64,000 nucleotides of DNA, taken from assembly GCA_043771685.1 (NCBI GenBank), contig JAYVGX010000034.1, positions 11,690-75,689 of the forward strand, in the 5' to 3' direction. A program made the translations under genes and the position numbers. This DNA is from Minisyncoccota bacterium. GTDB taxonomy: Bacteria > Patescibacteriota > Minisyncoccia > Phycocordibacterales > UBA9973. Every line of letters starts with the position of its first letter. Position 1 is the stretch's first letter. Under the pieces are notes generated by a model. It was not told the origin of the DNA and searched no databases. It was given only the letters and a program-made list of their open reading frames with translations. Shown piece by piece: positions 9,436 through 45,313 of this stretch.

Positions 9436-11250
9436 TTAACGGTCCCCACTTCTCATCATCTTGAGGAATACATCGTGAGAGATATTTATCTTTGCATTTG
9501 CCTGCAAACGTTTTTTACCTTTCTTTTGCTTCTCTAGTAACTTCTTCTTACGACTCACATCCCCTCCTCCGACAACTTTACTACCGTGCATAAGCACGTC
9601 TTTACGAAACGCTGACACAGACTCTGAGGAGATGATACGCCCCAATGCTTTGCCTTGGATCTTGAAATTAAATTGTTGGCGAGGGATAATATTTTTTAGT
9701 TTCTCTACTTGAAATTTGGCTTCTTCTTCGACTTTGCGACGTGATATAACTTGGGTAAATGCAGGCATGACCTCATCGGCGACTATTATGTCGAGCCTAA
9801 CAACATCGGCGTCTTTGTAGTCAGTGATCTGGTACGAAATAGAAGCATAGCCAGAAGTTATACTTTTCATATCATCGAAAAAGTGGCGCATTAGTTCACG
9901 CAGTGGCATCGTAAGTTCAATGGTCGAACGATTATCACCAAAGTTCTCTGTAGTCTTTACAATTGCATCGTGGTCAAAGAAAAACGGCATGAGGACGCTA
10001 GTATAAATAGATGGAGTGATAACTTTAGCATCTACCCATGGTTCGCTTACGCGGTTAGCATTGCCATCGTCTGGGAAAAGGTGTGGTGAATAGACTATTT
10101 CTTCTTTACCATTTTTTAATGTAACTTTATAAATAATAGACGGTAAAGTAACAATCAGTTCGAGGTCAAACTCACGATGAAGTCTCTCGGTGATTATTTC
10201 TAAATGTAGCATCCCAAGAAATCCACAACGGAAACCTCGGCCTAGTATACCGGAGGCTTCTTCTTCATAAGAAAAAGACGAGTCCGATAAACGTAAACGT
10301 GACAAGGCTTGTTTTAAATTCGTAAAATCATCCTGACTTTCCGGATAAACCGAAGCCCAAACAACTGGACTTGGGTTCATATAACCAGGCAAAGGCATAA
10401 CTGGTCTCTTTGCATAAGTTATAGTATCACCGACAGAGGCTATTCCTGGTTTTTTGATACCAGTTACAACATAACCAATTTCACCAGTAGATAGACTGTC
10501 TTTGGGTATTTCACTTGGCGAGAAAACTCCGACTTCGAGTGCAATAAATTTTTCTTCTGAAACAGCAAACAACAGTTGCTCACCTTTTTTGAAACTTCCT
10601 TCTATGACACGAATATAAACTATAACTCCGCGATGGTTGTCGTATTTGAAATCGAAAACCAAAGCCGATGCTTTATTTTGAATAATTTCATATTCTTTTG
10701 GGGCTGGGACTCTTTTTACAACTTCAGCTAGCAATTCTTTTACACCCTCACCTGTGCGTCCTGAAACAGCCATGATAGTGTCGGGGTCAATGTCGAGCAA
10801 TACTGCAACCTCCATCTTTACTTCGTCTACTCGTGCCAAAGGTGAGTCGATTTTTGAAACAACAGGTATGATAACGAGCCCGAGTTCTCGAGCTAGATTG
10901 AGAGTTGTCAGAGTTTGTGCTTGGACACCCTGAGTCGCATCTACGAGCAATATAGAGCCTTCTACCGCCTTTAGAGCCCGCGAGACTTCGTAGGAGAAGT
11001 CCACGTGCCCGGGTGTGTCGATAAGGTTTAAAATAAACTTTTCATTACCAATTTGGTAGTCCATTCTAACGGGCTGCATCTTGATTGTGATACCACGCTC
11101 ACGCTCAAGTTCCATCGAGTCGAGAACTTGGTCTTTCATTTTGCGTTTTTCGATAGTACCAGTGAGTTCTATCATGCGATCGGCAAGAGTCGATTTCCCA
11201 TGGTCAATATGGGCTATAATTGTGAAATTCCTAATAGATTTTGTATCCAT
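9436..11250 (-). CDS. lepA: Elongation factor 4 (LepA).
   Basis: IRNFTIIAHIDHGKSTLADRMI, DTPGHVDF and the characteristic LepA C-terminal domain. 604 aa. Confidence 0.95.
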   Translation of the reverse strand: MDTKSIRNFTIIAHIDHGKSTLADRMIELTGTIEKRKMKDQVLDSMELERERGITIKMQPVRMDYQIGNEKFILNLIDTPGHVDFSYEVSRALKAVEGSILLVDATQGVQAQTLTTLNLARELGLVIIPVVSKIDSPLARVDEVKMEVAVLLDIDPDTIMAVSGRTGEGVKELLAEVVKRVPAPKEYEIIQNKASALVFDFKYDNHRGVIVYIRVIEGSFKKGEQLLFAVSEEKFIALEVGVFSPSEIPKDSLSTGEIGYVVTGIKKPGIASVGDTITYAKRPVMPLPGYMNPSPVVWASVYPESQDDFTNLKQALSRLRLSDSSFSYEEEASGILGRGFRCGFLGMLHLEIITERLHREFDLELIVTLPSIIYKVTLKNGKEEIVYSPHLFPDDGNANRVSEPWVDAKVITPSIYTSVLMPFFFDHDAIVKTTENFGDNRSTIELTMPLRELMRHFFDDMKSITSGYASISYQITDYKDADVVRLDIIVADEVMPAFTQVISRRKVEEEAKFQVEKLKNIIPRQQFNFKIQGKALGRIISSESVSAFRKDVLMHGSKVVGGGDVSRKKKLLEKQKKGKKRLQANAKINISHDVFLKMMRSGDR

Positions 11251-11287
11251 TTGTATATCTTAACAGAAAAATGCTTAAAAATAAAGG

Positions 11288-13054
11288 CTACTCTATAAAC
11301 CCACCAACTTGGTGATTCCATAAGTCTGCATAGTCGCCGCCGCGGGCTATGAGATCGGCATGAGTTCCCTGTTCGGTTATTTTTCCATCTTCGAGAACTA
11401 TGATGCGATCCATTTTAGAAATTGTAGAGAGTCTGTGGGCGATGACGATTGTGGTTTTATTTTTCATCAATTCATCAAAAGCTTTTTGAATGTATGTCTC
11501 GCTTACACTATCAAGCGACGATGTTGCTTCGTCTAAAATAAGTATTGGAGCGTCTTTTATCATCGCGCGAGCGATAGCTACACGCTGTCTTTCACCACCA
11601 GAGAGTTTGACCCCACGTTCACCAACATATGTTTCGTATTTGTAAGGTAACTTTTCGATAAAGTCATGAGCATAGGCTTTCTTTGCAACTTCTATAACAT
11701 CCTCATCTGTTGCATTGTCTTTCCCATAAGCAATGTTTTCGCGAATTGTCCTGTGAAATAAAATTGATTCTTGTGGTACATAAGAAATAACAGAACGTAA
11801 ATCATCTTGAGTCACATTGCGGATATCTTGTCCGTCGATAGTTACACCTCCAGCAGATACATCAGAAAAACGCAGTATCAAATTAGTAAAAGTAGACTTA
11901 CCTGCACCCGAGTGGCCAACCAAACCAATTCTTTCGCCAGGTGCAATATCTATAGAAAAGTTCGAAAATACTTCTTGTCCATTTTTATAAGAAAAAGAAA
12001 CATTGTTGAAAACCAAATGGCCTTTGGTCATATTTAATTTCTCTGGATTTTTAGGGTCCTCGATATCTGGAACTGTTTCAAATATTTCGACAACCTCTTT
12101 CATTTCTGCTGCAGATTTTGTAAACTTCATCATAGCATTACTTAAATCCCAAAGTTTCTCATAAATAGTAATCATATATGTTTGTATCAAAACTACTGTT
12201 CCTGTACTTATTTGACCCTTAAGCCAAAGCTTTATAAGTAAATACAATAATAAACTTAATGTTATAGAACCAAAAAGAGCCTGAGCTATTTCTATTTTTC
12301 CTCCAAAAAACCAAGCTTTTTTACTTTTAGTTTCTGCCTGAGTTGTTATTTCTCTAAATTTTTCTTTTTCATTTTTTTTTGCAGAAAATATTTTAACTGC
12401 TAACATATTGCCAAAGACATCAGATAATCTACCACTTAATTTTGAATCACTTGTAGATTCATCAGCATCATAAATAATTTTCGTTTTTAAGAATAAAATT
12501 ATTATAAGAATATAAATAAAAACAAAAAGAGAGAAAACGACACAAGCTTGTTTTGATTGATTATACAAAACAAAAAACATACCTATGAATGCAATCAAGG
12601 TTCCATAAAACTGATAGATCAATATATCAAACATTGTTTCAAATGATCGCACAAAACGATTAGATTTTGTTACTAAAGAACCAGCGAACGTGTTGGCAAA
12701 AAATGTTTGTGAATTATTTGTGATTTTACTAAAAGAAAAGTTGCGTAATTCTTTTATAACTTTTATTTCAAAATCATAAATCATAAACTTTCCTAATCTT
12801 GAAATTAAGGTTAAAGAAAAATTTATTATTACAATTATAAGAACTAAATTAAGCAGAGTAGGTTCTAGTAGTAAACGATTCATCTCATCCACAGATGAAG
12901 ATAAATTATCTATGATTCTTTTAAAGAAAATTGGCTTAATAACATTTTCCAATAAAGCTCTTATTCCGAATAATAGAAAAGAACCATAAAACAAAAACTT
13001 GTATTTTCGCATAGACGGCCAGACGTATTTAAATATAGAGCGAAATAATGACAT
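11288..13054 (-). CDS. ABC transporter permease/ATP-binding fusion (MsbA/exporter type).
   Basis: Six-TM N-terminal half. C-terminal half has Walker A GHSGAGKST, the ABC signature LSGGERQRVAIARAM, and Walker B ILILDEATS. Confidence 0.85.
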   Translation of the reverse strand: MSLFRSIFKYVWPSMRKYKFLFYGSFLLFGIRALLENVIKPIFFKRIIDNLSSSVDEMNRLLLEPTLLNLVLIIVIINFSLTLISRLGKFMIYDFEIKVIKELRNFSFSKITNNSQTFFANTFAGSLVTKSNRFVRSFETMFDILIYQFYGTLIAFIGMFFVLYNQSKQACVVFSLFVFIYILIIILFLKTKIIYDADESTSDSKLSGRLSDVFGNMLAVKIFSAKKNEKEKFREITTQAETKSKKAWFFGGKIEIAQALFGSITLSLLLYLLIKLWLKGQISTGTVVLIQTYMITIYEKLWDLSNAMMKFTKSAAEMKEVVEIFETVPDIEDPKNPEKLNMTKGHLVFNNVSFSYKNGQEVFSNFSIDIAPGERIGLVGHSGAGKSTFTNLILRFSDVSAGGVTIDGQDIRNVTQDDLRSVISYVPQESILFHRTIRENIAYGKDNATDEDVIEVAKKAYAHDFIEKLPYKYETYVGERGVKLSGGERQRVAIARAMIKDAPILILDEATSSLDSVSETYIQKAFDELMKNKTTIVIAHRLSTISKMDRIIVLEDGKITEQGTHADLIARGGDYADLWNHQVGGFIE

Positions 13055-13114
13055 CTATAAAATATACCAAAAAAAGCTTAAAAAGCAAAGCTTATTTAAA
13101 AAGACAATCTTAAA

Positions 13115-14797
13115 CTAAAGTTCTTTCTGTTCTGGAGCTATAACCCGACCACGCCAGAATTTGTGACTTAGAGTATCGATTAAATCGAATAATTCTTTGT
13201 TTTTCATGAGAGCCAGAATTATAACACCCAATCCTATACCAATGAGTCCTGAAAAGAGACCTTGCAACAAGATACCGTAACCAGTATTTATATCTAGTAT
13301 ATTATCTAAAATCCCCAACATAACATAAGAAGTCGTACCCATCACAACAGAAGCAACTGCACTCTGCAAGAAGCTCTGGAACAACTCAGACGAATGATAT
13401 GGGAAGAAATCTTTTTTGAAATAAATCCAAAGTAAAATAAAATTTAAAAAAGAACCGATACTATACGCCAATGGTAAAGCCAGGAGTTTAGTACCTGAAA
13501 CGTGCTGAACTCTCAATAAGGATTCTAGGTTAGAAAGAATAAATGGATAATTTTCAAAAATAAATAGGAATAGAAAAGCGAAAATTATAATCATAATAGA
13601 AGAAAATACACTTATTAGAAGTGGTTTTTTTGTATTTCCTGAAGCATAGTATGAACGAACCAACAACAAAACTAAACTTTGAGTAACTAAAGACACTATA
13701 AACAATGCTACAGCTGCAGCTGTTAAACGTGTGTCTGACCAAGAGAATCTCTGCGAGCCCAGAACTACACGTACTATCTGTGCACGCAAAACAGCGAGTA
13801 ATGCGATTATAGGTAATGACCAGAAAATAATACTCCTTGCAGTAGAAACTATTTGTTTAACAAAAGCATCCATGTCTTTATTGGAAAATGATTTAACTAA
13901 TACAGGAAAAGCTGCTACAGAATAAGAAATACCGATAATGCCGACAGGTACTGATTGTAGATTATAAGAAAAAGTAAAAAGAGAAATAGAACCAGGTACT
14001 AATAATGAAGCAAGAGATATCAGAACTATAAATACTAAACTCGTACAAGACAAAGCAACAGTTCTAGGGAAAGAAGTTCTGACAACTTTATAAATTTCTG
14101 TCCAAGATATTTTACTAGTAAATAATGGGAAAAAGCCATGCGAAATAATCACAGGTATCTGTATAGATAAATGCAACAAAGCACCGATAACCACACCAAA
14201 TGCGAGTCCTGTAACACCTAGTTTTGGATATAGATAAGCTACACCAAACAATATTCCTAAGTTATAAAAAACGGGCGACAAAGAGAATACAAAGAAATTT
14301 CTAAATAGTTGAGTAACCGTTCCGAGCATATTAGAAAGTCCGATAAATATAGGAGACAAAAGCATGATACGACTGATTTTGATTAATAAAACAAGTTGTT
14401 CATTATTAAAACCTGGAGCAACTAGTGGTGCGATGTACGGCATCAAAATAGCTATTACAATACTCGCAATTAACATGAAAACCATATAAACAGTAAAAAT
14501 ACTATTTAGAAAAATCCGAGCTTTATCATTATTTTTATCGTCAATACGATCAACCAAGAAAGGCAACAATACAGTCACTGAAGCCAGCGATGCGACAGAT
14601 ATGTATAGGAAATCAGGAATTCTAAATGCAGCATAATAAACATCTAAAATAGGTCCTGATCCTATACTGTTCACCAACATTCTGTCACGTATTAGACCTA
14701 GAATTTGAGAAAGCAGAGAGAAAATTCCAAGCACTAAAGCAGCCTCACCTATCGGACCTTGCTTGCTGTTAAAAAATTTTATAAAACGCTTTACCAT
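13115..14797 (-). CDS. murJ: Lipid II flippase MurJ (MviN family).
   Basis: N-terminus GEAALVLGIFSLLSQILGLIRDRMLVNSIGSGPILDVYYAAFRIPDFLY. 560-aa polytopic MOP-family protein. Confidence 0.85.
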   Translation of the reverse strand: MVKRFIKFFNSKQGPIGEAALVLGIFSLLSQILGLIRDRMLVNSIGSGPILDVYYAAFRIPDFLYISVASLASVTVLLPFLVDRIDDKNNDKARIFLNSIFTVYMVFMLIASIVIAILMPYIAPLVAPGFNNEQLVLLIKISRIMLLSPIFIGLSNMLGTVTQLFRNFFVFSLSPVFYNLGILFGVAYLYPKLGVTGLAFGVVIGALLHLSIQIPVIISHGFFPLFTSKISWTEIYKVVRTSFPRTVALSCTSLVFIVLISLASLLVPGSISLFTFSYNLQSVPVGIIGISYSVAAFPVLVKSFSNKDMDAFVKQIVSTARSIIFWSLPIIALLAVLRAQIVRVVLGSQRFSWSDTRLTAAAVALFIVSLVTQSLVLLLVRSYYASGNTKKPLLISVFSSIMIIIFAFLFLFIFENYPFILSNLESLLRVQHVSGTKLLALPLAYSIGSFLNFILLWIYFKKDFFPYHSSELFQSFLQSAVASVVMGTTSYVMLGILDNILDINTGYGILLQGLFSGLIGIGLGVIILALMKNKELFDLIDTLSHKFWRGRVIAPEQKEL

Positions 14798-35891: not shown

Positions 35892-36173
35892 CTATTGGTT
35901 AACTTTAACTACGAGTCCTATGCTTGCTAACATATCTGCAACTCTTTCACAACTTTCCTTATCTCCTTCGTAAACTTTAGCGCTACCGAATTGATCTACC
36001 ACATATGCATAATGAGATGCTGTGTCACTTGAACATCCGATAGCACACATTAGTTGTTCTATCACATCATCAAAAGTATGACAATTACAATTAAAAAGAA
36101 TCACATTCCAGATCAATTCTGGTTTTATCGAGGTTATTGTTTTTAGATTAATTTTAGTTATCGTTTCAGACAT
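35892..36173 (-). CDS. clpS: ClpS-like Clp-protease adaptor, 4 nt downstream of hsdR.
   Basis: IWNVILFNCNCHTFDDVIEQLMCA...ASHYAYVVDQFGSAKVYEGDKESCERVADML aligns to the ClpS core (YKVILLNDDYTPMEFV...AVH..G.A.C.V...E.AE.KV). Confidence 0.55.
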   Translation of the reverse strand: MSETITKINLKTITSIKPELIWNVILFNCNCHTFDDVIEQLMCAIGCSSDTASHYAYVVDQFGSAKVYEGDKESCERVADMLASIGLVVKVNQ

Positions 36174-36176
36174 ACA

Positions 36177-39100
36177 CTATGCGGGTTGAAATTCTCTATA
36201 AACACGGACTGTTTCCATATAAATAGATTCTATTAAGCGTTCTGTCTGCATTACTTCGGTGATTCCTTTTTGAATCAAAAGAAGTCTTACATTCTGACGA
36301 ATACGAGCTTTGATGGTTTCGTTGTTTGTCCAATCAATAGTTAAGTCTCTACGAATACGCTTCGTAAGTTCCTTAACAAAGTCTTTTATATCTATTCCTG
36401 ACTTTTTAAGATCAGGGTCTGTTTGTAAGGTGTCGTAGAAAGTTATCTCTTCAGGTGAAAGTCCGAGCGAATGGCTTTCTTCATCAAGTTTCTTGATTTC
36501 ATCTGCAATCCCAAGGAGTTGTTTAATTACCTCCGCTGAACTAATAATATTATTCTCATACTTCTCAATAACTTTTTTTAGTAAATCAAGCATAGTCTCG
36601 TAACGAGCTTTATTATTTTTTGAACGAGCTTTAATTTCAGTTTCCAGCAATTTTCTTGTTGCGTCTATAGCAAAATTTTTGAATTTTACATTTTTTATTT
36701 CTTCCTCAAATTTTTTATCAAAAATTGATATTTGTTTTGTATTTTTACCTTCACCAAACAAATTAATAACCCCTTCTGCTTGCATAGATTGATCAAGTAA
36801 ATTTCTTATCGCACTCTCAGCCTCTTCAGGGAAAATGGTTCCAGGAATATAACCTATTTTTTTAATATATTCTTTTATCGCTTGGTAGAAAGTAATATTT
36901 GATGAAAATACCAAAGCTTTTTCGTCAGGCATAATTGATGCGTGAAGTTTCGAAATAAGTGAGACAAGTTCAAAATATTTCATTTTTCTATCATCTGATA
37001 AAACAGAATTATTTGAGATAACACATTCACTTGCTTCTTGTAAAAGTAGAGAAAGTTCCTGACCACTTTTTTGTTTATATGAATTAAAATTTAGATTACC
37101 AAAATAACCTTTTATCTTTTCATCAAGTTCTTGTATTTTTTGAACAACATCGTCAACTTGAATAATCGCATTCTGATCAATCTTTCCATCATACATCGAT
37201 AGTGCTTTCTTTAAATTTTCTGCAAGTCCAATATAATCCACGATCAATCCAGCTGGCTTATCTTTATGTACTCTGTTTACACGAGCAATTGCCTGCATGA
37301 GACCATGATTCTTTAATGGTTTATCAAAATACATTGTATGTACGCTTGGTACATCAAAGCCGGTAAGCCACATATCACAAACTATAACAAGACGTAATGA
37401 GTCTTTATTGCTTTTAAATCTCTTTTCAAGATTTTTAGTATTACGTTCTTTTTGCATAGAATCTTTATACTCATCGCTATTTGAAATTACCACAGCACAC
37501 TCTGGGGCATCCTTAATTTTTTGTATTTCTTGATATAAAGATACCGCAATTCTACGACTCATAGTTACAATCATACCCTTGCCTTCAATTGGTCTTTGAT
37601 TAAAATGCTGTACAATATCTTTTGCAATTTGTTCAATGCGACTCTGCGTACCAACAACTTTTTCAAGAACAGTCCATTCTTTTTGAATTTTTGTTTTTTC
37701 CTCTATAACAATATCACCAAGAAGTTCATCAAATAATGAATTTATGTCTTCTTTTGCAATACCGAGTGGTACGAGTCGTGCTTCATAAATAATATCGACG
37801 GTAGCACCATCTTTAACTGCTTCACTTAATTTATATTCACTAACAATATTACCGAAGACTCGCTGTGTATTCTGACCATCTTCTTTCGCAACAGGTGTAC
37901 CAGTAACAGCCAAGAAACTTGCTTGGGGTAATGCTTTTCGTACGTTTCCAGCAAGTCCGCTATATTGTGTACGGTGAGCTTCGTCAGCAAGAACAATAAT
38001 ATTTTCTCTTTGTGAGAAATAACTAAATTCTTCTTTATAGTCTTGAAATTTTTGAATTGTTGAAAAAATAAGCCTACTAATTCCATTATCAAGTTGCTTA
38101 ATCTGGTCACGTAAATCAAGAATACTTCCTGCTCGATGAGATACATCCTTGTACCCAACTCGTGCGAAAAGTTTTGAAAGCTGGTCATCAAGGTCTTCAC
38201 GATCAGTCAAAAATAGATATGCAGGACTTTTAAGTTCCTCAATGTTCTTAGTCTTATTCACATAGAAAACCATAGAGAGTGATTTGCCAGATCCTTGTGT
38301 GTGCCAAAAAACCCCAATCTTATGATCTTGTTCTCCACGCACTGCACGGAGTGTACTTTCAACCGTTGTATTTACTCCATAGTACTGATGGTACAAACAC
38401 ATCTTTTTTGTAAATGTTACCGCTTCACCATCTCCATCTGCTTCAAAAACAAAGAAGTTTTGCAAAACATCCAACAGTCGTGTTCGATCAAATAATCCTT
38501 TAGCTAGTACTTCTAGTTGATTAGTATTCTTTGGTGCGTCAGTAGGGGTTGTAATACCTTTCCATGTTCCATATCTTTCCCATGAAGATGAAATGGTTCC
38601 GTGTCGCGCGTTAATAAGATCGGAAAGACCGATAACTTGATTATATAAAAATAGTTTTGGTATTTCTTTCTTATATCTTTCTACTTGTCTGTATGCTTCA
38701 CCAATTGTAGCTCCACCGTGTACAGCGCTCTTTAATTCAAAAAGACCGATAGGTAATCCATTAATGAAAACAACTACATCAAGACGACAAGTAGAATCTA
38801 TTCCCTGAACTGTAAACTGTCTTACGGCTAAAAACTCATTTGAATCTGGATTATTAAAATCAACAAGTTTTACTAGGTCAGTTTTTTCTTCTTCGTTTCC
38901 ACGCCAAGAAGTTTTCTTGCCATTCACAAGCCATGAGTAAAATTCTTTATTACCAAGCATTAGATCATTGTGATGATAATCTGCAATATCTTTTACCACC
39001 ATTTCTGCTTGCTCTGCAGGAAGTGATGGGTTGATTCTACGAATAGCACCAAGGAGTCTGTCTTTCAAAACAACACCTCGAAAATCCTCACGCTCTGCAC

Positions 39101-39209
39101 GAGGTTGCCCAGGATTTATGTCTGGGCCATATACATACTCATAACCCTGACCTTGTAGCCATTCGATGAGAGATTGTTCTGTTAAGTTGTTTTCGTTTAG
39201 TGTGTTCAT
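36177..39209 (-). CDS. hsdR: Type I restriction enzyme R subunit.
   Basis: 1010 aa. N-terminal nuclease domain, SF2 helicase motifs (TQGSGKSL; DEAHRTQYS), and a type I R C-terminal domain. Confidence 0.9.
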   Translation of the reverse strand: MNTLNENNLTEQSLIEWLQGQGYEYVYGPDINPGQPRAEREDFRGVVLKDRLLGAIRRINPSLPAEQAEMVVKDIADYHHNDLMLGNKEFYSWLVNGKKTSWRGNEEEKTDLVKLVDFNNPDSNEFLAVRQFTVQGIDSTCRLDVVVFINGLPIGLFELKSAVHGGATIGEAYRQVERYKKEIPKLFLYNQVIGLSDLINARHGTISSSWERYGTWKGITTPTDAPKNTNQLEVLAKGLFDRTRLLDVLQNFFVFEADGDGEAVTFTKKMCLYHQYYGVNTTVESTLRAVRGEQDHKIGVFWHTQGSGKSLSMVFYVNKTKNIEELKSPAYLFLTDREDLDDQLSKLFARVGYKDVSHRAGSILDLRDQIKQLDNGISRLIFSTIQKFQDYKEEFSYFSQRENIIVLADEAHRTQYSGLAGNVRKALPQASFLAVTGTPVAKEDGQNTQRVFGNIVSEYKLSEAVKDGATVDIIYEARLVPLGIAKEDINSLFDELLGDIVIEEKTKIQKEWTVLEKVVGTQSRIEQIAKDIVQHFNQRPIEGKGMIVTMSRRIAVSLYQEIQKIKDAPECAVVISNSDEYKDSMQKERNTKNLEKRFKSNKDSLRLVIVCDMWLTGFDVPSVHTMYFDKPLKNHGLMQAIARVNRVHKDKPAGLIVDYIGLAENLKKALSMYDGKIDQNAIIQVDDVVQKIQELDEKIKGYFGNLNFNSYKQKSGQELSLLLQEASECVISNNSVLSDDRKMKYFELVSLISKLHASIMPDEKALVFSSNITFYQAIKEYIKKIGYIPGTIFPEEAESAIRNLLDQSMQAEGVINLFGEGKNTKQISIFDKKFEEEIKNVKFKNFAIDATRKLLETEIKARSKNNKARYETMLDLLKKVIEKYENNIISSAEVIKQLLGIADEIKKLDEESHSLGLSPEEITFYDTLQTDPDLKKSGIDIKDFVKELTKRIRRDLTIDWTNNETIKARIRQNVRLLLIQKGITEVMQTERLIESIYMETVRVYREFQPA

Positions 39210-39213
39210 AAAT

Positions 39214-39789
39214 TTATTTTCCAGTTCCGCTTCTTATCGTTTCAATTATTTGAGTTGTTGGCACAGGACTATTCCCGTTTTTAAGATACCCAGTTTCCTG
39301 AACATCAAACATTGTTCTTGTAACCTGTAATAAGATTGCATTCTTTGTCTCTGCGTCATTATCAGATTCCGTACCTCTTACAGAGTCTAAAATTCTTTGA
39401 TGGGAATTAAGAATCAATTGTCTATGTTTATTTATATAATACATGTTCATTTCAGCAGAATAATTTCTAGAGAAGTGGGCGACCAAGTAACCTCCCGCAG
39501 AAATGATCACTAATTTTAATAAAACATTTTGTTCTAAAATTGTATTCCAAATTCTTTGAAAGAAAGTTCCATCACCATCTATGGATAACTGTTTCCCAAA
39601 AACGAATATACAAGCCATAAGGGCTGTAAAAATAAGTGAGCTAAACATTCCTAGTGAATTCTTATCAGCCTTCTGTTTATTACCCAAAAAAGAGTATTTT
39701 TTGAAACTGAATATTTTCCATCTAAATAAATTAAACCCTTCTTCTGTGAATTCACCCTCAGCCATTCTTTCAAATTCTCTACCGTACAA
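39214..39789 (-). CDS. Hypothetical two-TM protein, likely the C-terminal portion of a frameshifted larger gene.
   Basis: TM hairpin LGMFSSLIFTALMACIFVFG ... LLKLVIISAGGYLVAHF. The frame stays open upstream to 39881 without a start codon. Confidence 0.4.
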   Translation of the reverse strand: MYGREFERMAEGEFTEEGFNLFRWKIFSFKKYSFLGNKQKADKNSLGMFSSLIFTALMACIFVFGKQLSIDGDGTFFQRIWNTILEQNVLLKLVIISAGGYLVAHFSRNYSAEMNMYYINKHRQLILNSHQRILDSVRGTESDNDAETKNAILLQVTRTMFDVQETGYLKNGNSPVPTTQIIETIRSGTGK

Positions 39790-39881
39790 TCTAACTTCTT
39801 GACCTTCTGCGATTGTTCCACTAACTTCTACTGACTTCTGAACTTTTTTAGTTAATTCATTTACAGTTTTAAGATTGTCCT

Positions 39882-40286
39882 CTAATTCTTTAGATTTTTT
39901 TCTAAATCTTTTTGTCTAACATCGTTTGCTGGATCTGCAAATTGTAAATAAGTTAAAATTGGATTTAATTGAGATATAATAGATTCTTCCTTTTGTCTTA
40001 CGAAAGCTAATTTTGATTCTCTTTGATTTACATCACTGTAACTATCAATAATTTGTGAATTAAGTTCAGAGATTAGGTTAGTCAAAACATTCTCAAAAGT
40101 TCTCTCATAATTAGGAATCTGTTCTAGTGTTAGTTTATAGCTAAAAATTCTATCGATGATAGTTTTTATTCTTTGTAAATTAGGTTCAATGCTTGTTAAC
40201 TCACCAGCTTCTCCAAGGTTATTTCTAAGAAGTTTTTGCCAATCCAAGTTCTTGTATTTTTCTATGATTTCTTGATTTATTGCCAT
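39882..40286 (-). CDS. Hypothetical helical protein of 134 aa, likely the N-terminal portion of the same frameshifted gene.
   Basis: Ends ...QKDLEKNLKN* just after an A7 tract. An A8 tract would read through as ...QKDLEKKSKELEDNLKTVNELTKK... into the 39214-39789 frame. Confidence 0.4.
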   Translation of the reverse strand: MAINQEIIEKYKNLDWQKLLRNNLGEAGELTSIEPNLQRIKTIIDRIFSYKLTLEQIPNYERTFENVLTNLISELNSQIIDSYSDVNQRESKLAFVRQKEESIISQLNPILTYLQFADPANDVRQKDLEKNLKN

Positions 40287-40291
40287 AAAAT

Positions 40292-41527
40292 TTAAATTAA
40301 TTTTGCTAATAATTGATCTCTCGACTGTTTAAGATTTTTAGATTCATTTTGTATAACATTCATCATTTGAAAAAGAGGTTTTATTTTTTTAATAAATTCA
40401 CCAAAAATTTCTTTTTCAGGAACAGTAATTTTTATATTCTTGATTGTTTTTGAATTAACGGCTGTTGCAATCGATGAAGTACTTCCTAATGAATCATAGT
40501 TATAACTTTTCATTATAAGGTATAGATATTCTGTAGATATAAACGAGCCATCTCTAATCTTGAGATGAGCGATTGCTTCATTTGATAACATTTCTTCTGT
40601 CGTAATAGCAACCTTACCCATAGTCAACTTAAAACTAACAACTAATGTCCCCTTAGGGATTATGGGGATATTAAATTTATTAACCGCTTCTCGGGTCAGA
40701 CATTCATCGGTATGTGATATAAAAATACCTCCAACTCCGAGATCTCTAATAGAGATCCATTTTATATCTTTAGGATTTTTTGAAAACCATTCTTGTTCCT
40801 GCCTTGGAGGAGTTCTTCCAATTGAAATATCACATATATTATCAAGACTATCAATTGTCCATCCCTCAGGAATTTCTCCCATCTCGCTCTCAATCATTTT
40901 CACTTTTTCATATCCAGGAAATTTGAAATTCACAAACCATTCATTAAAAATAGTCTGAGCAGTAAGTTCGAGATTTTTAATTATTATATTATTATTTTCA
41001 ATCTTTGAATCATATGCATTTAAGATTGAAGCAATTTTTTCCTGAGTCTCAAAATCTGGAATATAGAATGTATAATCTCGCAACTGACCTAAGGATACAT
41101 TTTTTATTGTGCTACCGTTAGCATTACTGTCTATGTGTTTTTGAAATCTCTGATCTAGTAAAACATAATACATATAATCTAAAACAAACTCCCTCTTCAC
41201 ATTAATATAACAAGCACTTTTACCAAGAATACATTTTTCACCTCTATATTTTGCCAAATTACCGATTGTCCCATTAATTGATAGCAAGAGCGTTTCTGTG
41301 CCTAAATCTTTTTTATGTTTTAGGTACTCTGACTCGCTAATTCTTTTGGTTTCTTTCTTAATTGAAATGTGCCCATTGTCCAAATTATTACCATTAATAA
41401 AATAGAATTCACCATTATCCTCATATTGAGGAGTTCCGTGCAACCCATCTCCAATTCTAATTGCAATATCAGCTAATGTAACTTCTTTTCTTTTAGTCTT
41501 ATTTATTTGTTCTAATAATTTACTCAT
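40292..41527 (-). CDS. hsdS: Type I restriction-modification specificity subunit.
   Basis: Two target-recognition domains, each followed by conserved helical repeats (...LGQLRDYTFYIPDFETQEKIASILN...; C-terminal ...LKQSRDQLLAKLI). Confidence 0.85.
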   Translation of the reverse strand: MSKLLEQINKTKRKEVTLADIAIRIGDGLHGTPQYEDNGEFYFINGNNLDNGHISIKKETKRISESEYLKHKKDLGTETLLLSINGTIGNLAKYRGEKCILGKSACYINVKREFVLDYMYYVLLDQRFQKHIDSNANGSTIKNVSLGQLRDYTFYIPDFETQEKIASILNAYDSKIENNNIIIKNLELTAQTIFNEWFVNFKFPGYEKVKMIESEMGEIPEGWTIDSLDNICDISIGRTPPRQEQEWFSKNPKDIKWISIRDLGVGGIFISHTDECLTREAVNKFNIPIIPKGTLVVSFKLTMGKVAITTEEMLSNEAIAHLKIRDGSFISTEYLYLIMKSYNYDSLGSTSSIATAVNSKTIKNIKITVPEKEIFGEFIKKIKPLFQMMNVIQNESKNLKQSRDQLLAKLI

Positions 41528-41531
41528 ATAT

Positions 41532-42428
41532 TTATTCTTTAAATTTCATCCTAATATCCCTATCCAAAGGCAGTTGTTTTAAAAATGTCAGTATTTCTTG
41601 TTGTGTCGGTTTTTTGACATTAGTAACAAAATAATCTTTTTGGAAAATCGGCTTTCCCTTCACTGCACACTCGTCTACTAGAGATTCAATAAACTCTGCG
41701 GGAACAGCGTCAAATGACAAGAGGGCGGTGATAAGCACATATTCATGAAATGCTTCAGCATCTTCAATTTCAACTTTTATGCGTGTAGAAATTGCTCTCA
41801 GCGTCTTGATAAATGAGATTGCTGATTGTTTTTTAAAATTAAAATTCTTTTCAAATACGCATACGATAAAAAAGCGCATTTTGTTATTTTTTCCTCCTGA
41901 GGAGCTACCAATTAATGATTCACTTTCCCAGAGTTGATCCTCAACCATATCTACAACACCAGCTTTCTCATTCCAAACAAAGTTTCTATCATCTGAAATA
42001 GTATCCCTGATAATTCCAAATGTACTTTCTTTTTGTATTCCACATTCCTTAATAACAAAGGTATGCATTCGTATAAGTGTTTGAATAGTCATATCCGCCT
42101 GTTTTCGAGCAAATCTTTTTGATTCTTCATCTTGTAACTCAATCTCACCAGCAGAAACGACATATCCAAACTTGTCGCGATTTTCAGCATGATCAAGAAG
42201 TTGTAGTATCGGTTCGTCATCTAAAAATTGTTTTCGATTTTTCTTTATATACTCAAATGTAAAAGGATTTATTTCTGCTTCAACCACGAGAAAAACTCGA
42301 CTAATACTATCGTCTAAAATTCTCGTTTCTTCAGATAAACGAACTTGCGAATACGGACCGTCCTCACCCCACATTTTTTTGTAATCTGTTTGTGTGAGCT
42401 TTTTCTGTTGTTTGTTATCGTTTTTCAT
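41532..42428 (-). CDS. Hypothetical cytoplasmic protein of 298 aa embedded between rhuM and hsdS.
   Basis: Clean ORF tightly packed in the hsd operon (4-nt and 2-nt gaps). No family recognised. Confidence 0.4.
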   Translation of the reverse strand: MKNDNKQQKKLTQTDYKKMWGEDGPYSQVRLSEETRILDDSISRVFLVVEAEINPFTFEYIKKNRKQFLDDEPILQLLDHAENRDKFGYVVSAGEIELQDEESKRFARKQADMTIQTLIRMHTFVIKECGIQKESTFGIIRDTISDDRNFVWNEKAGVVDMVEDQLWESESLIGSSSGGKNNKMRFFIVCVFEKNFNFKKQSAISFIKTLRAISTRIKVEIEDAEAFHEYVLITALLSFDAVPAEFIESLVDECAVKGKPIFQKDYFVTNVKKPTQQEILTFLKQLPLDRDIRMKFKE

Positions 42429-42429
42429 A

Positions 42430-43551
42430 TTATTTTTTATTTTTTTGAACTGTCAACTTTTTGTTGATACTTGATTTTTCCAAAAGTTTTTTTACTTCTT
42501 TGTCAAAATCAGAAATATGTTTTTTATCTTGCTCTACTCGATATTTTTCGTATTCTTGTAATGCTAGTGCTTCCGCCACTTCGTGACTAATTTTTCCATT
42601 ATCTTGTAATATTTGTTCCTCATTAAATTTCAAAAATGAATCGAGTTTTTTCACCCAATCTTTCATTTTCATGAGTATCCCTTTCTTTGCCTGTATTTCT
42701 GCATAGTCCAAATACATAGTCACAATTCTATTAAGAAAATCTAGTTCTTTTTCTTGTAAGTAATTTTTTGCTATAATTACATCATTTTCACGAATAAGAC
42801 CATTTGGTGAATTCTTCCAACTCATCAAGCCAATATTTTCTTTTTTACTACTAACTCTACTATAAACAATCTCTGCAGCGGTTTGACCCGTAATTGCAAA
42901 GTGTAATTTATTTTGTACGGTAGCAAAAAACAGTTTCGTTATTTTATTAGTAGGATCATAGTCTGCACTACATTGTGAATAAATATCAGTAACTTTCTGA
43001 TACATACGCCTTTCACTTGATCGAATGTTTCTTATTCTCGCAAGTTGTTCTTCAAAATAATCAATACCGAAAATAGTATCAGTATTTTTAAGTCTCTCAT
43101 CGTCCATAGTAAAACCTTTGATAATGTATTCTTTTAATCTTTCTGTGGCCCAAATTCTAAATTGTGTTGCTTGTGAACTGTTTACACGATACCCAACTGA
43201 TAGGATAGCGTCTAAATTATAAAATTTTACAAACTGATTTTGTGTTTTTCCTACAATAGCTCCATGGATAGTGGTATGTTCCAAAATGGAACTAACCAGT
43301 TTTTCGTCTAATTCTCCACTTTCGAAAATATTCTTTAAGTGTTTAGTGATTGCTGGTCTTTGTACTCCAAAAAGGAGAGCTATTTTTTCTTGTGTCAGCC
43401 AGATATTTTCATCACGCAAAAATATATCTACTTTTACCTTTCCATTTGGTGTGGTGTAGAGCAGAAACTCTGTAAAACTATTATTTGGTACAATTTTTGT
43501 AATCTTTTTTTTCATATAATTAAAATCCAAGTTCTTTAAGATTTTTCTCAA
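42430..43551 (-). CDS. rhuM: RhuM-family protein.
   Basis: NLDAILSVGYRVNSSQATQFRIWATERLKEYIIKGF. It overlaps the hsdM 3' end by 32 nt. Confidence 0.75.
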   Translation of the reverse strand: MRKILKNLDFNYMKKKITKIVPNNSFTEFLLYTTPNGKVKVDIFLRDENIWLTQEKIALLFGVQRPAITKHLKNIFESGELDEKLVSSILEHTTIHGAIVGKTQNQFVKFYNLDAILSVGYRVNSSQATQFRIWATERLKEYIIKGFTMDDERLKNTDTIFGIDYFEEQLARIRNIRSSERRMYQKVTDIYSQCSADYDPTNKITKLFFATVQNKLHFAITGQTAAEIVYSRVSSKKENIGLMSWKNSPNGLIRENDVIIAKNYLQEKELDFLNRIVTMYLDYAEIQAKKGILMKMKDWVKKLDSFLKFNEEQILQDNGKISHEVAEALALQEYEKYRVEQDKKHISDFDKEVKKLLEKSSINKKLTVQKNKK

Positions 43552-45313
43552 TTTCTTTTTCTAATTCACGACCAACAGTAAAAGCTTCTCGAAGTTCACT
43601 TGAAAGTTTCTGCATTTTTTCTTCAAAAGAAATTCCATCATCTTCTACATCAGTAAGCCCAACATATCTGCCAGGAGTAAGAGTGTATCCGTTCTTTTTT
43701 ATTTCTTCTAGGTTGGCAGATTTACAGAAGCCTGAAATATCTTCATATTTCCCAGCCCCTGATTCTCCACGCCATGCACGGACTGTATCTGTAATTTTTG
43801 CAATCTGTTCTTTACTAAAGATAACTTGCTTGCGAGAAATCTGTTCAAATGTATCTCGTGCATCAATGAATAATGTTTCTCCCTTGCGTTTGCGAAAACG
43901 GTCACCATTTTTATTTTTAGATAAGAACCATAGAGACACGGGTAGTCCAACATTATAGAAAAGTTTGGATGGACAAGAGATGATGACATCTACCATATCA
44001 GCTTCAATAAGCTTTTGACGAATTTCTCCTTCTTTACCTGATACAGCAAGTGCTCCATTGGGCATAACGAATCCTGCCTGACCATTAGGTGAAAGGTGGT
44101 GAGCGAAGTGTTGTACCCAAAGAAAGTTTGCATTACCTGATGGAGGTGTTCCTAAAAATATTCTTGGATCATTGTCAGAAAGTTTTAATGGTTCCCATTC
44201 TGCGTTAAAGGGAGGGTTCGCAATTACGAAATCTGCCTGTAGGTGTGGGAACTTATCTTGATAGTAAGTATTACCAAGTTCAATCTTTCCAGAGAGTCCA
44301 CGAATAGCTAGGTTCATCTTGCAAAGGCGAAGTGTAGTTTGGTTGCTTTCTTGTCCACTAATAGCAAGTTTTGATGGATCCATTTTATGGTCTCGCAAAT
44401 ACTCACCCATAGATACAAACATTCCTCCACTGCCACAAGCAAAGTCTGCCACACGAGCATTTTCGTAAGGTTGAAGTATTTCAACAAGTAATTTAACGAT
44501 TGATCTTGGTGTAAAAAACTCGCCTCCACGCTTTCCCTCTGATGAAGCAAATTGACCTAGGAAGTATTCATAGATTCTTCCAAGAATATCTTTCTCCCGA
44601 TCAAAGTCATGATCAAAAGATATTTGTGAAAAAATATTAACAAGTTCACCAAGAACGGTATGATCAAGATTTACTTTTGTGTATACACGAGGTAGGACAT
44701 TTTCAAGTTGTACAGGATTATCTTTCTCAATCAACTCCATTGCGGTATCCAAAACCTTTCCGAGATCAGGACTCATGGTTTTTGTTTGCAAAAATTCCCA
44801 ACGAGATTTTTCTGGAACATAGAATACCCCTTCAGCTGTATAAAAATCTTTTGTTTCAAGAATAGACTTCCGAGCTTCTTCTGTTGGGACATAGAAGTCT
44901 TCATCCTTCGGGTCTTTAGTTTTTAAAGTTAGAACTTCACGCTGTTTATAAAATGAGTCTGATATATATTTCAAAAATAAAAGTCCAAGTACAATATTTT
45001 TATACTCGGACACGTCAACATTACCTCGTAATTTATCTGCCGCCATCCAAAGCTCTTTTTCAAAGCTGAGGTCGTGGTGTTGGTTTTTATCTAAAACTTT
45101 CTTTGTGACGCTCTTTTGCTGTTCACTAATACGATTCTGTATTTCTTCTGAGAGCGAAGCCTTTGGGATTAAGTAAGTTGGTTTAGAGGGGTCTCCTATA
45201 TTTTCAGCTGTAATTTCACCCTTTTTGATCTTTTGATGAACGGCTATACGGCTAATACCCAACATCTTTGCGAGTTGTGTAGGGGTTACAAATTGTGATT
45301 TATCGATTGACAT
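43520..45313 (-). CDS. hsdM: Type I restriction-modification N6-adenine methyltransferase subunit with an N-terminal HTH.
   Basis: HsdM N-domain, SAM-binding DFACGSGGMF, and catalytic FVIANPPFN. Confidence 0.9.
   Translation of the reverse strand: MSIDKSQFVTPTQLAKMLGISRIAVHQKIKKGEITAENIGDPSKPTYLIPKASLSEEIQNRISEQQKSVTKKVLDKNQHHDLSFEKELWMAADKLRGNVDVSEYKNIVLGLLFLKYISDSFYKQREVLTLKTKDPKDEDFYVPTEEARKSILETKDFYTAEGVFYVPEKSRWEFLQTKTMSPDLGKVLDTAMELIEKDNPVQLENVLPRVYTKVNLDHTVLGELVNIFSQISFDHDFDREKDILGRIYEYFLGQFASSEGKRGGEFFTPRSIVKLLVEILQPYENARVADFACGSGGMFVSMGEYLRDHKMDPSKLAISGQESNQTTLRLCKMNLAIRGLSGKIELGNTYYQDKFPHLQADFVIANPPFNAEWEPLKLSDNDPRIFLGTPPSGNANFLWVQHFAHHLSPNGQAGFVMPNGALAVSGKEGEIRQKLIEADMVDVIISCPSKLFYNVGLPVSLWFLSKNKNGDRFRKRKGETLFIDARDTFEQISRKQVIFSKEQIAKITDTVRAWRGESGAGKYEDISGFCKSANLEEIKKNGYTLTPGRYVGLTDVEDDGISFEEKMQKLSSELREAFTVGRELEKEIEKNLKELGF

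Follow-up and report, generated by a model that had tools for sequence, protein, structure and literature searches.

What is a hypothetical protein doing in the middle of a type I restriction-modification (RM) operon? The question is raised by a 64,000-nucleotide stretch of a Minisyncoccota genome (assembly GCA_043771685.1, contig JAYVGX010000034.1, positions 11,690 to 75,689; hereafter the window), in which a 298-amino-acid (aa) open reading frame (ORF), here called X, lies between rhuM and hsdS. A first-pass annotation, made from the sequence without database searches, had described X as an uncharacterised protein with no recognisable catalytic signature and had proposed a novel defence component or a restriction-alleviation factor of the type I locus. 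Our analysis shows that X is built of two independent modules, that its C-terminal one genuinely descends from the Y1 transposases of IS200/IS605 elements though it is catalytically dead, and that the family resides preferentially in RM, toxin-antitoxin (TA) and defence islets without an obligate partner. Both the modularity and the inactivated transposase half had been missed in the first pass.

A modular family of CPR bacteria

X is a real gene and not a chance ORF, since it has numerous homologs (114 at E<=1e-3 in a set of 5.8 billion proteins and 498 in an exhaustive profile search) and confident AlphaFold2 (AF2) models. The named sources are nearly all metagenome-assembled genomes (MAGs) of the Patescibacteria or Candidate Phyla Radiation (CPR), among them Taylor-, Vogel-, Roizman-, Gottesman- and Peregrinibacteria, Paceibacterota and Minisyncoccia; a few homologs come from MAGs labelled otherwise (uncultured Gammaproteobacteria, Pseudomonadota, Methylomirabilota). 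Every homolog is annotated as "hypothetical protein", and direct searches of X against Pfam, PADLOC (PADLOC-DB v2), NCBIfam, PHROGs and PDB sequences returned 0 matches, in keeping with its first description as uncharacterised. No homologs were found in IMG/VR, GenBank phages or PLSDB plasmids, which places the family on the host side. The 53 full-length homologs share 41-70% identity, and dozens of their residues vary little or not at all. The X family is conserved, modular, host-encoded and restricted to CPR-type bacteria. An anti-restriction DNA mimic of the Ocr/ArdA type was ruled out by charge (pI 5.55; 50 acidic versus 45 basic residues) and by the absence from the phage, plasmid and viral collections, and the suggested restriction-alleviation or anti-restriction role found no positive evidence.

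The structure prediction and fold comparison that the first-pass annotation had proposed as a check were carried out. The AF2 model, built on a 53-sequence alignment (pLDDT 83), shows two domains predicted with confidence and, between them, a disordered linker (Table 1) with pLDDT <50 at residues 135-149 and 163-176. Within the linker a VW152N motif is conserved, W152 being invariant and N153 nearly so, and a G-rich stretch, GSSSGGKNNK, runs into the C-domain. A strict Walker A motif (GxxxxGK[ST]) was not found in X; the sole near-match, a degenerate GSSSGGKN at residue 174, was rejected as a P-loop, having the wrong last residue, lying in the disordered linker and preceding rather than following a strand. 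Nor does X contain a transmembrane segment (maximum 19-residue Kyte-Doolittle mean 1.34), and in both respects the first description is borne out.

The N- and C-domains are mutually unrelated (hhalign prob 0.2%), which rules out that the former is a cryptic duplicate of the latter, and each is met without the other. The N-half alone makes up proteins of ~125-130 aa (274 clusters), and the C-half occurs alone as well as behind a HEAT-like module in proteins of ~240 aa. PRiA4_ORF3 (PF07929) is fused to either half, as N+PRiA4 in P0112 and as PRiA4+C in P0243; no functional information on PRiA4_ORF3/MM3350 was found in the literature searched. The two domains are shown by these arrangements to be independent evolutionary modules. 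A short conserved motif, 'AWNYFPH..LGG.(S/C)P.E', is also attached to either the N- or the C-domain (P0107, P0060, P0235) and may serve both as a common site of docking; it may also resemble motifs in the C-termini of DUF2384/Xre antitoxins.

Table 1. Features of the window (positions within the window) and, in the last four rows, gene layouts of other loci with a stand-alone N-domain
Feature	Position	Strand	Evidence or remark
hsdM, type I methyltransferase	43520..45313	-	Pfam N6_Mtase 4.8e-102, HsdM_N 3.7e-22, HTH_17 5e-4
rhuM	42430..43551	-	directly upstream of X; Pfam Virulence_RhuM 1.4e-106; PADLOC candidate family PDC-S05 1.9e-139
gene X	41532..42428	-	ATG start, 298-aa ORF; two-domain protein
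X N-domain, residues ~12-130	42039..42395	-	AF2 pLDDT 92.7, pTM 0.84
X linker, residues 131-177	41898..42038	-	acidic, pI 4.1, predicted disordered
X C-domain, residues ~178-289	41562..41897	-	basic, pI 9.1; Foldseek TnpA matches
hsdS, specificity subunit	40292..41527	-	Pfam Methylase_S 1.7e-29, two stretches
357-aa ORF between hsdS and hsdR, split in the window	39214..40286	-	ORF listing and comparison with contig L001
hsdR, restriction/translocase subunit	36177..39209	-	Pfam HSDR_N, SWI2_SNF2, T1R_D3-like, T1RH-like_C
ClpS-like adaptor gene	35892..36173	-	starts 4 nt after hsdR; Pfam ClpS 1.6e-11
RhuM + Fic fusion, 326 aa	34810..35790	-	follows closely on the ClpS-like ORF; assigned by Pfam through its copy in the near-identical contig L001
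L111: MmeI-type RM/Bro-N/N-domain/WYL			N-domain gene overlaps a separate WYL gene
L112: Vsr-Dcm ... NYN-PD-(D/E)XK-Fic-Panacea			stand-alone N-domain islet
L113: hsdR-GIY-YIG-hsdM-SMEK-MC6-DUF2326-hsdS-N-domain			
L114: AbiEii-N-domain			

The C-domain and the N-domain

The C-domain has the secondary structure beta-alpha-beta-beta-alpha-beta-alpha in the AF2 model, and its top 29 Foldseek matches in the PDB are all TnpA transposases (ISDra2, IS608, IS200, S. tokodaii; E 1.1e-6 to 2.9e-4, prob 1.0, TMt 0.51-0.68), with generic ferredoxin-like proteins appearing only below them. It thus shares with IS200/IS605 TnpA (PF01797; ISDra2 2xma, IS608 2a6m, IS200 2f4f) the beta-alpha-beta-beta-alpha-beta fold and the terminal helix. 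A profile of 39 C-domain relatives likewise finds IS200 transposases (2f4f, E 0.047, and 2ec2) as its best PDB sequence matches, and the alignment with 2f4f is in register over beta1 ('RFFIV' in X, 'YHFVW' in TnpA), the central hairpin ('EIED..YVLITALL' in X, 'EIIALEVMPDHIHLFV' in TnpA) and the C-terminal helix ('YFVTNVKKPT..EIxxFL' in X, 'SYFVATAGNVSSEVIKKYIEEQ' in TnpA). Weak Pfam Y1_Tnp matches (PF01797, E<=1) were obtained for 6 of the 39 relatives, and the best-scoring relative reaches 20.9 bits against a gathering cutoff of 23; X itself has none. The first-pass statement that no catalytic signature can be recognised therefore holds at the level of sequence, but the C-terminal half does have a recognisable IS200-type TnpA fold.

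The defining catalytic features of TnpA are the HUH motif and a tyrosine on helix alphaD, Y127 in IS608 (PMC3597680). In X, HUH aligns to Y230-V231-L232; position 232 is never His, neither in the 53 full-length proteins nor in the 39 C-domain relatives, and position 230 is His in 9 of the 53. The place of the nucleophilic tyrosine is taken by F282, which is Phe in 52 of the 53 full-length members, and a Tyr stands at the equivalent position in 24 of the 39 members of the wider C-domain superfamily. Having lost both HUH and Tyr, the C-domain cannot catalyse cleavage and joining of single-stranded DNA by the known mechanism. By analogy with its ancestors, it most plausibly keeps a binding role for single-stranded or hairpin nucleic acid. 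The invariant residues of the C-domain are now G178, R185, E222, Y266 and N270.

Unlike IS200/IS605 TnpA, X is fused to an unrelated N-domain and lacks IS ends and hairpins: no conserved flank k-mers or motif and no consistent hairpins were found at the X loci (a downstream hairpin with z<-2 in 14 of 65), and the window holds a single copy. These observations bear on another explanation, namely that X is a decaying or hitch-hiking IS200/IS605-like remnant without a defence role, which gathers in islets that tolerate insertions. The transposase ancestry of the C-domain, the transposase genes near a HEAT+C homolog and the location in variable regions would all agree with it, yet a remnant would hardly be under the strong purifying selection seen across the 53 full-length homologs, nor be expected to have replaced the catalytic residues with a new invariant set (R185, E222, Y266, N270) or to be most conserved in its non-transposase N-domain. 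We regard this explanation as very improbable. A parallel is offered by the RAYT (TnpA-REP) proteins, Y1 transposases exapted for a host function, present in single copy and not part of an autonomous IS (PMC8266576, PMC3333891). RAYTs keep HUH and Tyr and act as nucleases on REP hairpins (PMC8266576, PMC3333891); X, on the other hand, retains neither and shows no association with repeated palindromes. Since a survey of the Y1 superfamily discards members without the motifs as non-functional (PMC6006769), the conserved HUH-less TnpA clade appears to be undescribed. If the N-domain proved to be a promiscuous neutraliser or sensor, X would be an example of a transposase exapted without HUH and Tyr, in parallel to the dead TnpB repressors.

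The N-domain is the most conserved part of X. Modelled alone in AF2, it consists of alpha0, a beta-hairpin, three short helices, beta3 and a long helix, and this predicted fold has no significant neighbour in the PDB (best E 0.26, TM 0.36) and none in BFVD. Its profile against PDB sequences and 39 of its members against Pfam and PADLOC gave nothing consistent, the PADLOC search yielding two singleton noise matches only. As modelled, the fold is new, being without a match in any library searched (Pfam, PDB, BFVD, PADLOC, PHROGs). The stand-alone members, at only ~30-50% identity to X, all have P25, N54, P55 and Y89, while W20, Y26, S27, T57 and H122 are conserved to at least 90%. From this pattern Y26, S27, N54, T57, Y89 and H122 look like one conserved ligand-binding or catalytic pocket. 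By eye, the N-domain has no Fic-inhibitory [S/T]xxxE[G/N] motif, and the HEPN motif Rx4-6H is not present in conserved form.

Genomic neighbourhood and possible role

The census of genomic neighbourhoods, which had also been proposed in the first pass, covered 25 loci from GTDB species genomes and 79 from metagenomes, plus Pfam-annotated contigs; de-duplication at 90% identity reduced 105 loci to 72 lineages (32 full-length, 40 N-domain forms). Neighbours were labelled by single-seed phmmer with seeds taken from the neighbours themselves, an approach that underestimates remote families and gives no unbiased background, so that the expectation of defence neighbours is a rough estimate rather than a computed control. 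With these crude labels, at least 36 of the 72 lineages have an RM, TA or defence-type gene within 3 genes. The first-pass annotation had named a widespread housekeeping context as the outcome that would speak against a defence role, and this is not what was found: in 7 of the 8 contexts with independent Pfam annotation such a gene lies no more than 2 genes from X, and in all four long-contig samples (4/4) the stand-alone N-domain sits in a defence islet (Table 1, last rows).

The partners are diverse. By number of lineages, the labelled neighbours are Fic (10), HsdM (6), HsdS (6), PemK (5), NYN (4), Bro-N (4), RhuM (3) and ResIII (3), beside T5orf172, HNH, TnsA-like, PIF1, M78/DUF4411 and a reverse transcriptase fragment. 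Bulk Pfam annotation of the unlabelled neighbours adds DUF3800 (4), DNA methylases, ResIII/SWI2-SNF2, PD-(D/E)XK, AbiEii-like AAA_21, NYN and ordinary housekeeping genes, and further tight partners are GmrSD_N+HNH and DUF3800. Neighbours are co-oriented with X in 81% of cases, and the gene directly upstream is typically effector-like and 1-60 nt away. The islets are short and flanked by housekeeping genes (SecA, MnmA, L25, SecY). Relatives sharing the C-domain alone are found in comparable surroundings, a C-domain-only protein in a variable region with RadC/Phd-ParE/RhuM/S24-PemK and a HEAT+C protein in one with transposases and a PRiA4_ORF3 protein. No single conserved partner of X was found across the lineages.

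Another possible role for X is that of a dedicated accessory of the type I enzyme. It could associate with HsdS in assembly or specificity, or modulate the enzyme as a factor of restriction alleviation or of establishment. Whenever X is embedded in an RM locus it adjoins hsdS or lies one small gene away (the window, L004, L005, L017, L047/48, L101, L113), and its translational coupling to hsdS is tight, with 4 nt in the window, 1 nt in L017 and -4 nt in L101. Moreover, X is kept in three RM lineages among which the other embedded gene varies, being RhuM in the window, NYN in L004 and a weak LPD3-like gene in L005. Yet RM-type neighbours (Hsd, TaqI_C or ResIII) within 3 genes occur in only ~13 of the 72 lineages, and most full-length homologs either have Fic, PemK or Bro-N beside them or stand by themselves between housekeeping genes. 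X has no homology to known anti-restriction proteins, C-proteins or Hsd subunits (no Pfam homology to HsdM, HsdS or HsdR), shows no obligate co-occurrence with hsd genes, and is not an acidic DNA mimic. A dedicated RM accessory is therefore, in our opinion, quite unlikely. Of the first-pass proposal of a novel defence component of the type I locus, the association with RM, TA and defence genes stands, but the specificity for type I RM does not, the family not being RM-restricted.

The explanation that we favour, tentatively and in the knowledge that it may well be wrong, is that X is an autonomous cargo of CPR defence or conflict islets and neither a subunit nor a dedicated accessory of the restriction enzyme. 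X and rhuM would have been inserted together between hsdM and hsdS and would be co-transcribed with the type I RM operon, X working alongside RhuM and the RM enzyme as one more layer of the islet, separable from them. The C-domain retains the fold by which TnpA grips hairpins of single-stranded DNA, and this dead-transposase domain would recognise single-stranded or hairpin nucleic acid, be it invading or replicating foreign DNA or transcripts. The N-domain would be the constant working part, a sensor pocket or a small enzyme that would have one common target, acting on it or signalling through it whatever the neighbouring effector, and the C-domain could be dropped, as in the stand-alone N-domain proteins, or exchanged for PRiA4_ORF3, HEAT or other modules. 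As for the mechanism, a nucleic-acid-recognising sensor or adaptor is the leading idea that we infer. It is in line with such a common target that the N-domain residues are kept across stand-alone members of ~30% identity irrespective of the neighbour.

Several points weigh against this explanation. Nucleic-acid binding by the C-domain is deduced from its ancestry and charge, and the ferredoxin-like fold serves many roles that do not involve nucleic acids, with S6, PII and ACT-like proteins matched in the same Foldseek list. The N-domain has no detectable relatives, so the pocket is deduced from conservation alone. About half of the lineages, under the crude labelling, have no recognisable defence neighbour, and genes in the collected loci were called by a simple longest-ORF heuristic. 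Finally, X often follows toxin-like genes at 1-60 nt, and a partner-dependent role as antitoxin or adaptor fits this at least equally well.

Such a role leads to the main alternative, unlikely but by no means negligible, that X, or essentially its N-domain, acts as a promiscuous antitoxin or immunity-type neutraliser of the adjacent effector, which would stay inactive until infection or stress, and the dead TnpA domain would then provide DNA binding for autoregulation. A toxin-like gene is a close co-oriented neighbour in ~20-30% of the lineages, at 1 nt for RhuM, 1, 22 and 39 nt for Fic, 14 and 15 nt for PemK, 44-80 nt for NYN, 30 nt for T5orf172 and 26 nt for TnsA-like genes, and overlapping in the case of GmrSD/HNH. 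The PemK loci contain no other co-oriented ORF of at least 30 aa as a candidate antitoxin, and the N-domain is found on either side of PemK (downstream in L007, L014 and L029, upstream in L073, with an 11-nt overlap, and in L092). The acidic linker with its invariant W152 may resemble the toxin-binding tails of antitoxins such as MazE. N-only proteins, however, have no linker, and many loci have no toxin-like neighbour at all, for example L101, with the order hsdS-N-domain-hsdR (4- and 8-nt overlaps), or L113, where the N-domain follows hsdS. In L114, a co-oriented ORF with no recorded Pfam match stands before AbiEii and may be the antitoxin that belongs to it; the 'KDFDxWN' subgroup of PemK may be solitary, and RhuM is only a putative toxin. 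The polar constellation that stays invariant across partners also argues for one common ligand over diverse toxin interfaces.

A close counterpart to an antitoxin of this kind is Panacea/PanA (DUF4065), reportedly identified by Kurata and colleagues in 2022 as a hyper-promiscuous antitoxin domain. Like the N-domain, it is a small conserved domain found beside many unrelated toxins in either gene order, sometimes with extra domains; the two differ in that there is no similarity of sequence or fold and that a recognisable toxin adjoins X in only ~1/4 of the lineages. A sensor or adaptor, on the other hand, may be compared with the WYL-domain defence regulators of the BrxR/CapW type, which combine a conserved sensor with nucleic-acid binding and accompany many defence systems. 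RptR is likewise a sensor-plus-nucleic-acid-binding protein accompanying many defence systems (PMC12255303). Unlike these regulators, X has neither a helix-turn-helix (HTH) nor a WYL domain and is usually placed downstream in operons, not upstream or divergent. X also resembles the other cargo of type I RM loci and defence islands (RhuM/PDC-S05, Fic, PemK, NYN, DUF3800) in being variable, swappable and co-transcribed in or beside hsd genes, but it differs from the catalogued cargo by lacking homology to PADLOC, Pfam, NCBIfam and PHROGs families and by being CPR-restricted. That type I RM loci and defence islands harbour embedded cargo is already known; the X family, its N-domain fold and the HUH-less TnpA lineage are uncatalogued in the libraries searched.

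CPR bacteria or Patescibacteria account for much of bacterial diversity, and in spite of their tiny genomes they have kept RM and toxin islets. Little can be said of what else protects them, as their accessory genes have no counterpart among the catalogued families. In the present case one hypothetical protein has become a well-delimited family of two modules, counting hundreds of members, with a candidate pocket, a dead-transposase domain and an association with defence and toxin genes that we regard as non-random, and residues can be singled out for mutation in both domains (Y26, S27, N54, T57, Y89 and H122; R185, E222, Y266 and N270). A bolder proposal, which we would call improbable though worth stating, is that the N-domain is a new CPR-specific conflict module that occurs in hundreds of lineages. 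It would be either a hyper-promiscuous antitoxin or adaptor with many unrelated effectors as partners (RhuM, Fic, PemK, NYN, nucleases, type I RM) or the part that does the work in a new single-gene antiphage system, with an exapted dead IS200 transposase domain sensing foreign single-stranded or hairpin DNA. If this is true, it would be the first functional assignment for the conserved HUH-less TnpA lineage, and few defence modules peculiar to ultra-small episymbiotic bacteria would precede it. Were the N-domain a promiscuous neutraliser or sensor, the concept of a combinatorial TA/defence network would extend to CPR, and even if it proved inert, X would still be of use for marking the variable islets of CPR genomes.

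The window operon and its variants

The ORF listing and the raw sequence confirm the position of X given in the first pass, 1 nt after rhuM and 4 nt before hsdS, and Pfam confirms that its neighbours are genes of the RM operon and rhuM (Table 1). The rhuM stop codon (TAA, 42430-42432) is separated by a single base (42429) from the X start codon (ATG, 42426-42428), and the X stop codon (TAA, 41532-41534) by four (41528-41531) from the hsdS ATG, which ends at 41527. Co-transcription of X with the type I RM operon, earlier considered as clear, is well supported because both spacers are too short for a terminator, and no credible terminator was found between hsdM and hsdR. The GC content of X (34.3%) is close to that of the window (33.7%). 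The best sigma70-like match of the 12-kb region (TTGACA-16-AATAAT, 11/12; 42429-42456, minus strand) lies inside the 3' end of rhuM and ends 1 nt before the X ATG; promoter-like sites in total are not above the shuffled expectation, so that this one may be a chance match in AT-rich DNA.

The window is 99.99% identical to the aquifer metagenome scaffold L001. One difference is a poly-A run at 39897-39903 (minus strand), which is A7 in the window and A8 in L001; this single nucleotide splits the 357-aa ORF, whole in L001, into ORFs of 134 and 191 aa. The 357-aa product has hydrophobic transmembrane-like stretches and no Pfam match, and the split could reflect phase variation, a pseudogene or a homopolymer assembly error. 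As restriction alleviation in E. coli proceeds by degradation of HsdR by ClpXP (PMC4231737), the ClpS-like adaptor of the operon could be a built-in restriction-alleviation device; a ClpS-like gene after hsdR was not found in the related loci of the L004/L005 type. The locus carries two RhuM-family cargo genes, rhuM and the RhuM-Fic fusion. HsdM has an N-terminal HTH-like extension (residues 6-56) with weak sub-threshold matches to HTH_17, AbiEi_4 and HTH_11, which is unusual for type I methyltransferases and may be autoregulatory.

The hsdM-hsdS junction is a recurrent site of cargo insertion in these CPR lineages. In L113 (1917-4829), SMEK_N/CTD10, MC6 and DUF2326 separate the hsdM and hsdS of another CPR type I RM operon, with a stand-alone N-domain gene after hsdS. 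A Cys-rich protein of ~165 aa with several CxxC pairs (u165) adjoins X and/or hsdS in L004 (10888-11385), L005, L044 and L101; it has no Pfam or PDB match and constitutes, in four lineages, a second uncharacterised RM-associated family. Finally, the strain variant L003 has an hsdM-rhuM-X segment identical to that of the window, but in its region 10902-13423, which corresponds to 39214-41527 of the window, hsdS is another one (407 aa) and a gene of 430 aa replaces that of 357 aa. The position of the recombination breakpoint directly downstream of X suggests shuffling of hsdS or its target recognition domains.

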